A DNA stretch of 64,000 bases from a bacterium (GTDB lineage: Bacteria; Bacteroidota; Bacteroidia; Bacteroidales; FEN-979), in contig JBAXDH010000006.1 of NCBI GenBank assembly GCA_037141055.1, forward strand, positions 1,766-65,765, written 5' to 3'. The position numbers were made by a program, and so were the translations under genes. The notes under the pieces were generated by a model. The model did not search any database. It was not told the DNA's origin and saw nothing but the letters and a program-made list of their open reading frames with translations. Below, one piece after another: positions 6,341-20,393 of this stretch. Numbering within the stretch: position 1 is the stretch's first letter; the number at the start of each line of letters is the position of its first letter.

Positions 6341-6454
6341 TTCCAGATTTGGGAATTTATATTCCTGAAATTGGAGTCACTAATTTGTTCCGTTTTGTGC
6401 AAGTTGCTGAAATACTGAAATATAAAGAAGATATAATAAAGGCATGATTTTAGC
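6341..6454 (+). promoter_or_regulatory. Putative sigma54 promoter with upstream activator sites (adhesin gene)
   Basis: AGGCATGATTTTAGC (6440-6454) = GG-N10-GC; imperfect palindromes at 6341-6355 and 6362-6376; IHF-like CAAGTTGCTGAAA at 6400-6412; same spacing recurs before both major pilins. Confidence 0.6.
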
Positions 6455-6606
6455 TTGCATATATATGGTGTGAGACGGCCAATTTCAAGTAGTAATTGTT
6501 TCGTCCCGATTTACCCGGGAATTTATTTTTACACAATCGCAGACTTTTGTTGCGATTCTCCTTGTGAAGAGGAATAAAAAAATTGTCAGGTCAGAAAATA
6601 TTCGTA

Positions 6607-6614
6607 TATCTTTG
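6607..6614 (+). promoter_or_regulatory. Possible housekeeping -7 element (TATCTTTG) before the adhesin
   Basis: TAnnTTTG match 22 nt upstream of ATG 6637. Confidence 0.35.
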
Positions 6615-6636
6615 ATAACGGCAAGTCGAGGTTGAA

Positions 6637-9600
6637 ATGTTAAAAAGAAACTCCAGCATTAAGATGAGTGTTCCGGCAATGTCCATCATTACCGGGATTC
6701 TCTTATTTATGCTCCTCTCTGTTTTTAATGCCCAGGCCGCAAATCGCTATGCCGTTGTCACCGGAAACTGGAATTCAACCGCCACATGGTCTGCCACATC
6801 AGGTGGAACCGGTGGAGCTTCGGTGCCTGTTGCCGGTGATGCTGTGTACATCGAAGGAGGTCATAATGTTACAATAACCGCCAATGCAGGCTGTTCATCG
6901 GTTTCTTTTACCACAACCACGGCGACCCTTTTAAACATTAATGCTGGTATCACCCTGGATGTTTCGGGTGCCGTGACGATTCCAAAGTCTGGTTCCAGCG
7001 TCAATACACTTGCAGTCGGGGCCGGTTTTTTAAATGCAGGAAGTGTCTCATTCACCGGCACAGGATCGACAAAAAGGCATGAAATCACAATTTCTACAGG
7101 TACTGTTATGGTTACAGGAAACGTTTCCGGGACTACGACCAGTGCGACCATTACATTCACCGGTGCCGGTTTGTTGAAATTGGGTGGTGCTTTTTTTACT
7201 TCTTCAACAGGAACGCTCACTCCTGCAACCGGCACGGTAGAATATAATGCATCAGGAGCTCAGACGGTAGGGGATTTTGCATACAATAATTTAACGTTGT
7301 CTGGCAGCGGGGCAAAAACTACAGATGCTGTTACCGTCAACGGCATTCTTTCAATGGAAGGAACGGCAACTGTCACGATCGCGCCAACTTACGGAACCTC
7401 TGCAAGCCTGGTTTACAACACAGCCACATCGCACGTTGCCGGTTTGGAGTGGGTAACCCCGTTTGCAGCCACTGGTGGCATCACCATTGCAAACACCGGA
7501 ACGATCTCCTTAAATTCTGCTGAAGTTTTCAACGCTTCAATTCCGCTGATCATAAACAGCGGCGCATCCTTATCAACCGCAGGTTTTCAGTTGACACTTG
7601 GAGGAGATTTCATCAACAATGGCGGCACTTTTAATGCAGGAAGTTCTCCGGTTGTTATCAGTAATACCAAGTTAATTCAGAGTATTGACGGGTTTACAAC
7701 AACTGGCTTGGTTTCGGTGACGAAATCTGCAGGTATTGCAACTATGCAGAATAACGTTACTGCCGGAGGCCTGACGATTAATGGTACCGGAGGAACCCTG
7801 AATTTAGGAGCAGGTTTCACACATTCGGTTACAGGCGCAGTAACACTTTCTGCGGGAACACTGAATGGAGGGACCAATACAATATTAGCTGTTTCAGGCA
7901 ACTGGACCAGGAACAGCGGTGTTTATGCAGCCGGGACAGGATCAGTTAACTTTATCGGAGGTTCGTTACAGACGATTGGCGGAAGTTCATCAACAACATT
8001 CAATAACCTTGGAATAAATAATTCTGCCGGTGTATCGCTCTCGATTGCAGTTGCCGTCGGCGGAACTTTAACATTGACGAGCGGTGTCCTGACAACCGGA
8101 TCCAGCGCATTGACTGTTTCAAATTCATCATCAACTGCCGTCACCGGCGGTTCTGCGACAAGCTTCATCAGCGGTCCGCTGACCTGGTCGCTGTCTGCGG
8201 GTCAAACCTACAGTTTTCCAGTTGGTAAAAGTTCAACGTATTTACCATTTGGGCTGACCGGCATAACCGGAACCAACCCGCAGATCAGGGTTGAAGCCTT
8301 TTCGGGCAATACAGGAGGCACCGCTTCACCTCCTTTAACCTCGCTCAGCACCACAGAGTATTGGTTCGCATCAGTTACAGCGAACACCTATTCCGGGGGA
8401 TCGGTTTCGTTGACACGCCAGGCTGCGCTTAATGAATTTGAAGCGGTTGGCAGAAATGCTTCATCTTTGAATGGAGCCTATGGCTCACTTAATGGCACTG
8501 TATCCGGAACCTCCATAATAAATTCAGACAATACCGGCAACTCTTTAGGGTATTTTGTCATGGCTTCAAAGCTGTCAATTACAACAGGAACCATCAATCC
8601 TGCATCCTATTGCCCGGGTTCATCGGTAATCGTACCTTATTCCAAAACCGGCACTTTCAGTGCGGGAAATGTTTTTACAGCGCAGTTGTCTGATGCAGTT
8701 GGTTCCTTTGCTTCGCCGGTCATCATCGGCTCCCTTGCCTCCCAACTTTCCGGCACCATCAGTGCCACAATCCCTGTGGGACAGTCGTCGGGTTCCGGGT
8801 ATCGCATCCGGGTCGTGTCAAGCAGTCCATCCTTCACAGGTAGCGACAACGGAGTGAATTTGTACATTGGCGGTCCGGTTATAACCGCGACGTACCCGGG
8901 TAGTTCCTGCGGACCTGGTCCGGTTGTTTTAGGAGCTACCGCTTCATTTGGCACGATCAGTTGGTATGCAGCAGCAACAGGAGGGAGTGCCCTGGGAACC
9001 GGGACCACCTTCACCACCCCAAGCCTTTCTGTAACCACAACATATTATGTGGATGTAATTAGCGGTAGCTGCACTTCTGCACCACGAACTCCTGTGATGG
9101 CTTATATTATCACTCCACCGACCATGACAGCCGGCGGTGGAGGAACCTTTTGTTACAGCTCAAATATAACACTCACCAGTTCAGGCACGAATATTTCCAA
9201 TCAATACTGGGAAGGACCTAACAGCTTTTATTCTGTGGAGCAAAATCCGGTAATTTCAGCTGCCACAACTGCCATGAGCGGAACGTATACGGTGACGGGA
9301 AGTGCTTTAAGTGGGATCAACCTGGTTGCCAATGGTGATTTTGAACTGGGAAATGTTGGTTTTGGCAGTGGTTACGTCGCCAGTTCGGACCTTCTCCTTG
9401 AGGGGACGTACGCAGTTGTTGCAGATCCCCGTTCTGTACATAGCGGCTACTCAACTTGCGCTGACCATACGCCTTCCGGCACGTTGCAAATGGTAGTCAA
9501 CGGATCCATCATAGCGGGAGTTAATGTGTGGACACAAACAGTTAGCGTTTTACCCGGAACAGACTATCAGTTTTCCTATTGGGTTCAGAGCGTCGTTGCC

Positions 9601-20035: not shown

Positions 20036-20061
20036 CGGAGTTGCAACTTCCTGCAGCTCCG
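20036..20061 (+). terminator. Hairpin (CCGGAGTTGC family, copy 2)
   Basis: CGGAGTTGCA-acttcc-TGCAGCTCCG, 14 nt after the pilin A stop. Confidence 0.6.
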
Positions 20062-20089
20062 ATTTTCTGATAAATAAAGTAACAATGTG

Positions 20090-20119
20090 CGAGGGCGTCT
20101 CAAAAGGGCGCCCTCGTTT
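20090..20119 (+). terminator. GC-rich hairpin, probable terminator after pilin A
   Basis: CGAGGGCGTCT-caaaa-GGGCGCCCTCG followed by TTT. Confidence 0.55.
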
Positions 20120-20279
20120 GCATTTATTACCATCAAGACAGCGCGGCATCATCATCGCATTGGTGGTGATAGAGAGCACCTGGCTTTACCTCATTCAGGT
20201 CATGCTGTAAAAAAGAATCCCGGGTCACGAACAAACAGATGCTCCGGATTGGTTTTTATTCCTGGAATAATCGAAAATA

Positions 20280-20393
20280 TTCTCAATTTGAGAATGTTAT
20301 TTCCGTTTTTGGAGATTTTCGATGGATAAATATTTTTTAATATATTGATTGTGAGCATGTTGGTATTTTGTGGCACATTGGAATGATTTTGGT
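20280..20393 (+). promoter_or_regulatory. Putative sigma54-type promoter, major pilin copy B
   Basis: TGGAATGATTTTGGT (20379-20393); exact IHF consensus TAATATATTGATT (20338-20350); palindrome TTCTCA-ATT-TGAGAA (20280-20294) and second site at 20301. Confidence 0.55.

Follow-up and report, generated by a model that had tools for sequence, protein, structure and literature searches.

Genes of the locus

The window analysed here, a stretch of 64,000 nucleotides (nt), is contig C6, positions 1766-65765, of a 94%-complete Bacteroidales genome (G000; 4.09 Mb, 278 contigs, 47.9% G+C). The nearest named relatives of the genes in this genome are metagenome-assembled genomes of uncultured Bacteroidales. 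The window carries a gene for a giant adhesin and, next to it, genes for a pilus-like fibre. We studied three candidate promoters, one before the adhesin gene and one before each of two pilin genes. A sequence-only reading had described them as sigma-54-like -24/-12 promoters with paired upstream palindromes, co-activated by one enhancer-binding protein. The genes concerned, with product lengths in amino acids (aa), are these:

6637..17295, + strand, giant adhesin, 3552 aa, with PKD/Ig-like domains and a C-terminal sorting domain of type IX secretion
17302-19054, three small DUF4402-like genes (minor subunits)
19443..20021, + strand, pilin 1, 192 aa, with a weak DUF4402 match under the Pfam cut-off
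20503..21081, + strand, pilin 2, 192 aa, 94% identical to pilin 1
21276-24803, a 291-aa gene ("chaperone") and an 877-aa gene ("usher"), names that come from the sequence-only reading and are unconfirmed

The DUF4402 matches of both pilins (E 5.8e-5 to 1.1e-4) were under the Pfam cut-off, one minor subunit was over it, and a clear match (E 6.6e-23) was seen at the related G032 locus. The two pilin genes are tandem duplicates, with nucleotide identities of 93% in the coding part, 78% in the leader, 73% in the promoter region described below and 68% in the 3′ flanks. Coding parts that are 93% identical against promoters that are 73% identical suggest gene conversion or strong purifying selection on the pilin coding part.

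Boxes and palindromes in the three promoters

Each promoter consists of a -24/-12 box and two upstream palindromes, together called the module below. Palindrome positions are counted from the GG of the box, and scores are from a position weight matrix (PWM).

6440..6455, + strand, adhesin box AGGCATGATTTTAGC / AGGCATGATTTTAGCT, with GG at 6441-6442 and GC at 6453-6454; predicted start about 6465-6467
6341..6355, + strand, adhesin distal palindrome TTCCAGATTTGGGAA, exact TTCC-N7-GGAA, at -100; score 12.4
6362..6376, + strand, adhesin proximal palindrome TTCCTGAAATTGGAG, one mismatch, at -79; score 9.2
19318..19333, + strand, pilin 1 box TGGAATGATTTTGGT / TGGAATGATTTTGGTA, with GG at 19319-19320 and GT at 19331-19332; predicted start about 19343-19345
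19219..19233, + strand, pilin 1 distal palindrome CTCCATAGTTTAGAA, CTCC-N7-AGAA, two mismatches, at -100; weak, score 5.1
19239..19253, + strand, pilin 1 proximal palindrome TTCCCATTTTTGGAA, exact, at -80; score 19.4
20379..20394, + strand, pilin 2 box TGGAATGATTTTGGT / TGGAATGATTTTGGTA, with GG at 20380 and GT at 20392-20393; predicted start about 20404-20406
20280..20294, + strand, pilin 2 distal palindrome TTCTCAATTTGAGAA, at -100; score 21.0
20300..20314, + strand, pilin 2 proximal palindrome, at -80 in its best register; score 12.5

The spacing GG-N10-G[C/T] is present at 6441, 19319 and 20380, and the boxes at 6440, 19318 and 20379 were found as the sequence-only reading had given them. 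The same is true of the distal palindromes, 100 nt before the GG in all three promoters (6341, 19219 and 20280), of which that at 19219 is weak. The proximal palindromes had been placed 79 nt before the GG throughout. This holds for the adhesin (6362), but those of the pilins fit one base further upstream, at 19239 and 20300.

The three promoters had also been presented as three similar cases. The adhesin promoter does share the design, but only two of the three are independent, because the likeness between the pilin 1 and pilin 2 promoters is by descent, through tandem duplication. Four indels between the two pilin promoters compensate one another, and the distance from enhancer to box is kept.

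Rank of the modules in the genome

The motif matches are far beyond chance. With both strands of the 4.09 Mb genome counted, the word GG.ATGATTTT.G occurred six times, and three of these occurrences were the window promoters. A fourth lies before a response-regulator gene on contig C26, with the same upstream palindromes; the remaining two are inside long open reading frames (ORFs), and their upstream DNA is unlike. Pairs of TTCY-N7-RGAA with at most one mismatch in total, 19-23 nt apart, occurred 14 times genome-wide, including the sites at the adhesin, at pilin 1 and on contigs C26 and C70.

Every genome position was scored with a composite PWM made of the box, a palindrome 97-103 nt upstream and a palindrome 76-82 nt upstream. 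It was trained on ten minC/pilin promoters from other genomes only, without window sequence and without adhesin promoters. Among 8,172,942 positions, pilin 2 (56.2), pilin 1 (47.2), the C26 site (38.5) and the adhesin (34.0) took ranks 1-4; the next distinct sites were on contigs C70 (26.8) and C64 (26.2). A plain nhmmer profile of the same ten promoters, searched over the genome, detected pilin 2 (E 6.8e-10), pilin 1 (5.7e-9) and the C26 site (E 1.4) and did not recover the adhesin site. What the adhesin promoter shares is therefore a matter of motifs and their spacing rather than of DNA that can be aligned, in agreement with the sequence-only reading, which had found it otherwise not alignable with the pilin promoters. 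In a sequence-only model of 29 modules (R1) the adhesin module had E 4.1e-8, but the adhesin sequence was in the training set.

The sites outside the window are these:

C26:30556-31100 (locus L068), module before a gene for a 136-aa single-domain CheY-like response regulator; a clear fourth promoter of this type
C70:4203-4320, + strand, weaker module (model E 1.1e-6) before a small secreted ORF
C64:11536-11653, - strand, weaker module (model E 1.8e-4), 46 nt after the gene for a bacterial enhancer-binding protein (the C64 bEBP) and before the gene for a 688-aa DUF4842/DUF4114 protein

The predicted regulon in this genome is small and comprises the adhesin, pilin 1, pilin 2 and the C26 CheY-like regulator. 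The small secreted ORF on C70 and the DUF4842 protein on C64 probably belong to it as well. The C70 ORF matched no Pfam family and had no similarity to minor subunit A. Divergent to the C26 regulator gene lies an ORF (>1964 aa) that encodes a PKD-like domain.

Conservation across the genus

The comparison set consisted of 40 genomes of the genus (39 besides this one) and 50 genomes from 12 other genera of the family. Pilin relatives were found in 12 of the 39 other genus genomes and in none of the 50 from the other genera. The gene order from adhesin to usher-like gene is kept in nine loci. Before pilus genes, the module was found in 13 instances in 11 genomes. In most orthologous loci it occupies the gap between minor-subunit genes two and three; G039 and G038 have it before a pilin gene, and this genome before each pilin copy. 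Before adhesin genes with an assembled 5′ end, it was found in five genomes (G019, G042, G038, G031 and this one).

The strongest independent support for the module came from the orthologues of the C26 regulator, whose promoters had no part in the training of the composite PWM. The module is directly upstream of the regulator gene in 17 of 19 loci of other genomes (18 of 20 with this genome), with boxes like TGGAATGGTTATTG[C/T]A and palindromes at -100 to -103 and -79 to -82.

An alignment of 29 modules was nearly gapless. Four blocks are conserved in it, one for each palindrome, one of ATAATCA type and one for the box, and all 29 modules share the GG and the G that opens the -12 doublet. Across the orthologous loci of the genus, the motifs are kept in position and sequence and the DNA between them has diverged. 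The sequence-only reading had named absence of the motifs from orthologous loci as evidence that would count against it; the module proved to be conserved in pilus, adhesin and regulator promoters of the genus.

No module was found within 3 kb in the more distant loci (46-54% chaperone-like identity: L060, L062-L066) or in L061, and the orthologous pilus loci of G030 and G022 also had no module. In G022, a gene for a 131-aa single-domain response regulator (L032:10598-10993) lies between the adhesin and the first minor-subunit gene.

When palindromes were searched without constraint on position, in 20 modules and 6 further ones, most modules had them at -100/-80. Shifted palindromes were seen at -90/-70 in G037, at -111/-91 in the G038 adhesin promoter, and at -92 in the G038 pilin, G019 adhesin and G031 adhesin promoters. 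These displacements of ~10-11 nt correspond to about one helical turn, the pattern that would be expected if the activator has to stay on a fixed side of the helix with respect to the promoter.

The -12 element and sigma-54

The genome has one rpoN gene, on contig C70, with a 501-aa open frame (Sigma54_DBD, E 3.2e-48); its absence had been put forward in advance as an argument against sigma-54. Among the 40 genus genomes, rpoN was found in 38, and the two without it are 81% and 70% complete.

For 36 instances of the box, the -12 doublet was GC in 12, GT in 19, GA in 3 and AT in 2. It was GC in 8, GT in 8 and GA in 2 of the 18 orthologous regulator promoters, and GT in 10 and GC in 3 of the 13 pilus promoters. 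The earlier remark that the pilins have GT rather than GC was thus borne out, and GT is common in the lineage, not an oddity of this locus. We read T in place of C at -12 as a variant that is probably tolerated in the lineage.

The published sigma-54 consensus is TGGCAC-N5-7-TTGCT, and some validated E. coli promoters depart from it at -12 (PMC12316311). The regulator promoters resemble this consensus closely. The leader of groES (contig C25, L126:1409-1424) has TGGCAT, then GA 10 nt after the GG, and may be a sigma-54 promoter with a non-GC -12, a hint that the relaxed -12 is a general feature of this genome. Both groES and grpE are sigma-54-dependent in other Bacteroidota (PMC12316311). A bEBP gene lies ~2.7 kb upstream of the groES leader on the same contig.

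An element like a binding site of integration host factor (IHF)

19277..19292, + strand, pilin 1 IHF-like element, core TTGATTATG at -35; score 9.2, and 1.8% of random windows score at least 9
20338..20353, + strand, pilin 2 IHF-like element, core TTGATTGTG at -35; score 6.2, weak

The sequence-only reading had reported an IHF pattern that is exact at 19277 and 20338 and has two mismatches at 6400. The pattern is there, but that of the adhesin does not rise over background: scores were 3.6 for the adhesin and 2.6 for the C26 promoter, and 13.9% of random 55-nt windows scored at least 6. The pilin 1 element falls in a partly conserved block of the 29-module alignment, where the element is conserved in the regulator promoters too. 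Most pilus modules have a strong element with a core YTGATWATC at -34 to -36, as does the G042 adhesin promoter, which scored 10.6. In G037, the element shifts in step with the displaced palindromes. A bend site in the pilin promoters is plausible.

Transcription units and additional promoters

19095..19124, + strand, terminator-like hairpin after the third minor-subunit gene, which sets pilin 1 apart as its own unit
20036..20117, + strand, two terminator-like hairpins after pilin 1
21095..21168, + strand, two terminator-like hairpins after pilin 2
6583..6614, + strand, candidate promoter TTG-N21-TATCTTTG, 22 nt before the adhesin ATG, which we take to be of the Bacteroidota housekeeping type

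The hairpins bracket each pilin gene, and each pilin therefore needs its own promoter. RNA data consisted of assembled contigs from four freshwater metatranscriptome runs of two studies, in which carry-over of DNA is possible. Contigs with at least 99% identity matched 19366-19566, 20473-20804, 20543-20895, 21855-22005 and 21881-22081, that is, parts of pilin 1, pilin 2 and the 291-aa gene; strand and starts are not visible in them, and the uncovered parts are uninformative. The contig at 19366-19566 spans 77 nt of the pilin 1 leader and is compatible with the predicted start at ~19343, nothing more.

When the adhesin leaders of the window and G042 were aligned with MAFFT, the TATCTTTG block aligned with that of the orthologous G042 leader; this alignment is out of register for the module motifs and useful only for this block. 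The adhesin may have two promoters, a proximal one of housekeeping type beside the distal one of sigma-54 type.

Before the 291-aa gene, the sequence-only reading had pointed to a weaker GG-N10-GA at 21223-21237. It is present, but its GG is not conserved in seven orthologous spacers, and it is below the listing cut-off of the composite PWM (18). What is conserved instead, in the spacer between the pilin terminators and the 291-aa gene (21225-21260, + strand), is GTAACC-N15-CGTATC, found in the window, L029, L031, L033, L034, L037 and L038. It resembles a promoter of the extracytoplasmic function (ECF) type. In several genomes where the pilin gene closely follows the third minor-subunit gene, AACC-N15-CGTAT precedes the pilin gene. 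These observations suggest a second regulatory layer, which would serve the assembly genes.

The 291-aa and 877-aa proteins matched no family in Pfam or NCBIfam, those of ushers and PapD-like chaperones included. Two beta-sandwich domains are seen in the predicted fold of the 291-aa protein (pLDDT 68.9). The top Foldseek match of this fold was WxLIP; a CFA/I fimbrial chaperone was only at rank 25 with TM <0.4, and the matches were generic two-Ig-domain ones. Both proteins may represent undescribed families of assembly proteins.

Candidate activators

The genome encodes eight full-length bEBPs. One of them, the single-copy C64 bEBP, has a receiver, an AAA+ domain with GAFTGA and a helix-turn-helix (HTH) domain (Sigma54_activat, E 2e-68). 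Another, the window bEBP, adjoins the locus together with a kinase and is followed by a sigma-54-like box:

28161..29552, - strand, NtrC-type enhancer-binding protein (window bEBP) with a receiver, AAA+ with GSFTGA and Fis-type HTH
29566..31119, - strand, hybrid histidine kinase paired with it, with receiver, PAS, HisKA and HATPase
27980-27995, - strand, sigma-54-like box TGGCTTTCTTTTTGTA, GG-N10-GT, after the kinase/bEBP pair and its hairpin and before a 164-aa ORF (27504-27998)

The 29-module model and the C64 bEBP were each searched in all 40 genus genomes. The C64-type bEBP was found in 22 genomes, one copy each, and all 22 had a module match, with best E of at most 1.2e-5. Among the 18 genomes lacking it, G020 had strong matches, six had matches with E of at least 1.2e-4 only, and 11 had none. 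Nine of the 22 genomes have a module on the same strand as the C64-type bEBP gene, at most 500 nt downstream of it; G019 and G031 show the succession bEBP, Hpt, module and giant adhesin. From this co-occurrence and linkage, the C64-type bEBP would be the most likely activator and the window bEBP the second choice.

Proposed mechanism

Motifs, geometry, conservation and co-occurrence with a bEBP gene together make it likely, in our view, that the three sites are enhancer-dependent sigma-54-type promoters, which would co-activate the adhesin and the pilins through one activator, most likely the C64 bEBP. The box has the form TGG-A-Y-G, four bases, T-K-G-Y. Two dyad sites TTCYC-N5-GRGAA, set two helical turns apart, start ~100 and ~80 nt before the GG, and the pilin promoters have an AT-rich IHF-like element near -35. 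An NtrC-family response-regulator ATPase would bind both dyads, the DNA between dyads and box would bend, and the activator would touch the sigma-54 holoenzyme held at the box, leading to opening. The adhesin gene and each terminator-bracketed pilin gene would in this way be fired together. The proposal that one enhancer-binding protein co-activates adhesin and pilins, made by the sequence-only reading, is supported by the conservation of the module, its presence at other adhesin promoters, rpoN and the co-occurring candidate bEBP.

Several points weigh against this interpretation. The pilin boxes have GT rather than GC at -12 and A rather than C at -23, the adhesin box has no T before the GG, and some adhesin promoters have AT or GA at -12. 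The adhesin site was missed by the plain profile, its bend element scored at background, and a housekeeping-type candidate lies close to its ATG. A single gene of the HU/IHF family (Bac_DNA_binding) was found in the genome, on contig C104, and the match does not distinguish HU from IHF. The RNA contigs cannot reveal 5′ ends and may contain DNA. The module beside the C64 bEBP gene in this genome is weak (E 1.8e-4, palindromes 4.4 and 7.3). The E-values of the 29-module model are rough, from a shortened calibration, and 18 of the 23 genomes with strong module matches contributed training sequences to it, leaving only G018, G023, G028, G032 and G045 as strong-match genomes without a contribution. 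The genus genomes share ancestry, and the counts of co-occurrence therefore look more independent than they are.

Alternative explanations

The promoters and enhancer could be as described and the activator could instead be the kinase/bEBP pair adjoining the locus (28161-31119, - strand), which we think somewhat unlikely. An orthologue of the window bEBP is within ~3 kb of the usher-like gene in nine genomes (G019, G031, G034, G044, G039, G036, G033, G042 and G037), all 14 other genomes with an orthologue of at least 74% identity have strong module matches, and the two orthologous pilus loci without the window bEBP nearby (G030 and G022) are those with no module. Such synteny within one genus may be mere inheritance, however, and eight genomes (G018, G023, G025, G026, G028, G038, G040 and G045) have strong module matches but no orthologue of at least 74% identity. 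In G020, G014 and G032, the kinase/bEBP pair is directly followed by a sigma-54-like promoter and a DUF4402 gene, which counts in favour of the pair, but these promoters gave no module match with the composite PWM. The window promoter at 27980-27995 likewise has no module, and its upstream region differs (judged by eye). The promoters after the pair are of a second, unrelated type that switches between C and T at -12 as the module promoters do, with TTGCA in G014 and G020 and TTGTA in G032 and the window. In the same three genomes, the DUF4402 gene is accompanied by distant chaperone-like and usher-like genes. A 70% identical paralogue of the window bEBP on contig C76, with a nearly identical recognition helix, further blurs an assignment to the pair.

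The adhesin gene could be expressed mainly from its proximal housekeeping-type promoter, with a distal module that modulates or is inactive, so that adhesin and pilins would not be strictly co-regulated. The good match 22 nt before the ATG, the aligned block in the G042 leader, and the adhesin module as the weakest of the four top sites (34.0 vs 56.2 and 47.2) are in line with this, and the sprB operon of Flavobacterium psychrophilum likewise has two promoters (PMC9723704). We nevertheless judge it unlikely: the distal module ranks fourth genome-wide, the adhesin genes of G019, G031, G042 and G038 also carry the module, and only ~30-45 nt separate it from the ATG in G019 and G031, which leaves no space for a second promoter. 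Dual promoters are also compatible with co-activation. It is improbable that the box is a site of another sigma factor or DNA-binding regulator, with palindromes that bind an ordinary activator or repressor. Such a reading could appeal to the 24 of 36 doublets that are GT, GA or AT and to the window pilin boxes, which also resemble the housekeeping -7 motif (TGATTTTG) closely, TTTG or TTG lying 21 nt upstream. No TTTG is found there in boxes such as TGGCACGATTATGGTA, TGGCATGGTATTGGTA and TGGCATGATAATGGCA, though, and GG-N10-G is kept in all 29 aligned modules; most orthologous boxes lack the -7 motif, and this reading of the box was rejected. An ECF-type reading, GGAAT-N20/21-CGTC, was ruled out by the spacer length, 20-21 nt and unequal between the two pilin copies owing to an indel. 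The regulator promoters are near the published consensus, validated E. coli promoters deviate at -12 (PMC12316311), and the module co-occurs with and adjoins a sigma-54 activator gene. Chance resemblance of the adhesin and pilin promoters in AT-rich intergenic DNA is highly improbable. By our own estimate, two 400-nt regions would be expected to have an 8-mer in common by chance, and the plain profile misses the adhesin site, but a model not trained on adhesin promoters placed this site fourth among all positions, and the module precedes the adhesin genes of four other genomes.

Comparison with known systems

Enhancer-dependent sigma-54 control of the adhesin and pilin genes, the reading we prefer, has several known counterparts. 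Classic promoters with upstream activator sites, an IHF site and a -24/-12 box are nifH (activated by NifA) and glnAp2 (activated by NtrC). The promoters described here resemble them in having two dyads about two helical turns apart, ~80-100 nt upstream, a putative bend site between dyads and box, and face-of-helix spacing. They differ in the dyad sequence, in a relaxed -12 (C, T or A), and in the bend element, which the adhesin and C26 promoters lack or have only in weak form, in a genome where one HU/IHF-family gene was found.

In Pseudomonas and relatives, PilS/PilR and RpoN control the type IV pilin gene pilA. That system and the predicted one share a two-component NtrC-family activator, upstream repeats and a sigma-54 promoter of the major pilin. 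Unlike pilA, the locus here has DUF4402 subunits with chaperone-like and usher-like genes and a co-regulated secreted adhesin, it is in another phylum, and the C64-type activator has no assigned cognate kinase. Sigma-54 control of type IV pili and PilA is described in PMC12316311. Our literature searches turned up no report of sigma-54 control of DUF4402 loci.

The closest parallel is in F. psychrophilum, where the sigma-54 motif SM4 drives the remFG-sprCDBF operon, which encodes SprB, an adhesin of the type IX secretion system (T9SS), as confirmed by promoter mutagenesis (PMC9723704). Both cases are in Bacteroidota and have a -24/-12-type promoter before the gene for a very large type IX-exported adhesin, a second promoter of another type (here a candidate) upstream of the same operon, and a regulon of cell-surface functions. 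SM4 is a typical -24/-12 motif tested by mutagenesis, whereas the promoters here are predicted and often have GT at -12. Here, in turn, enhancer sites and their geometry are defined, and the predicted regulon adds a DUF4402 locus and a CheY-like regulator; the passages of PMC9723704 on remFG-sprCDBF name no activator for the operon.

Implications

Control of this kind is already known; the points of interest are the relaxed -12 and the probable joint control of a type IX adhesin and a fibre locus with family-less assembly proteins. We offer as a tentative possibility that this lineage of uncultured freshwater Bacteroidales has a sigma-54 with a relaxed -12, T being commonest, and that a single bEBP, often with Hpt and no adjacent kinase, couples the type IX adhesin and the pilus-like fibre, which leave the cell by different export routes, in one surface-attachment programme, with feedback through the CheY-like regulator.

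Scans that require GC at -12 would miss about two thirds of the promoters collected here (24 of 36 have another doublet). The chaperone-like and usher-like proteins are flagged as proteins with no family assignment. Beyond adjacency, the shared module is evidence at the sequence level that the gene for the giant T9SS adhesin and its DUF4402 fibre neighbours would form one functional system. It would give an uncultured group a compact regulon whose enhancer grammar can be recognised and for which a candidate activator is named; regulon and activator could both be tested without culturing the organism.

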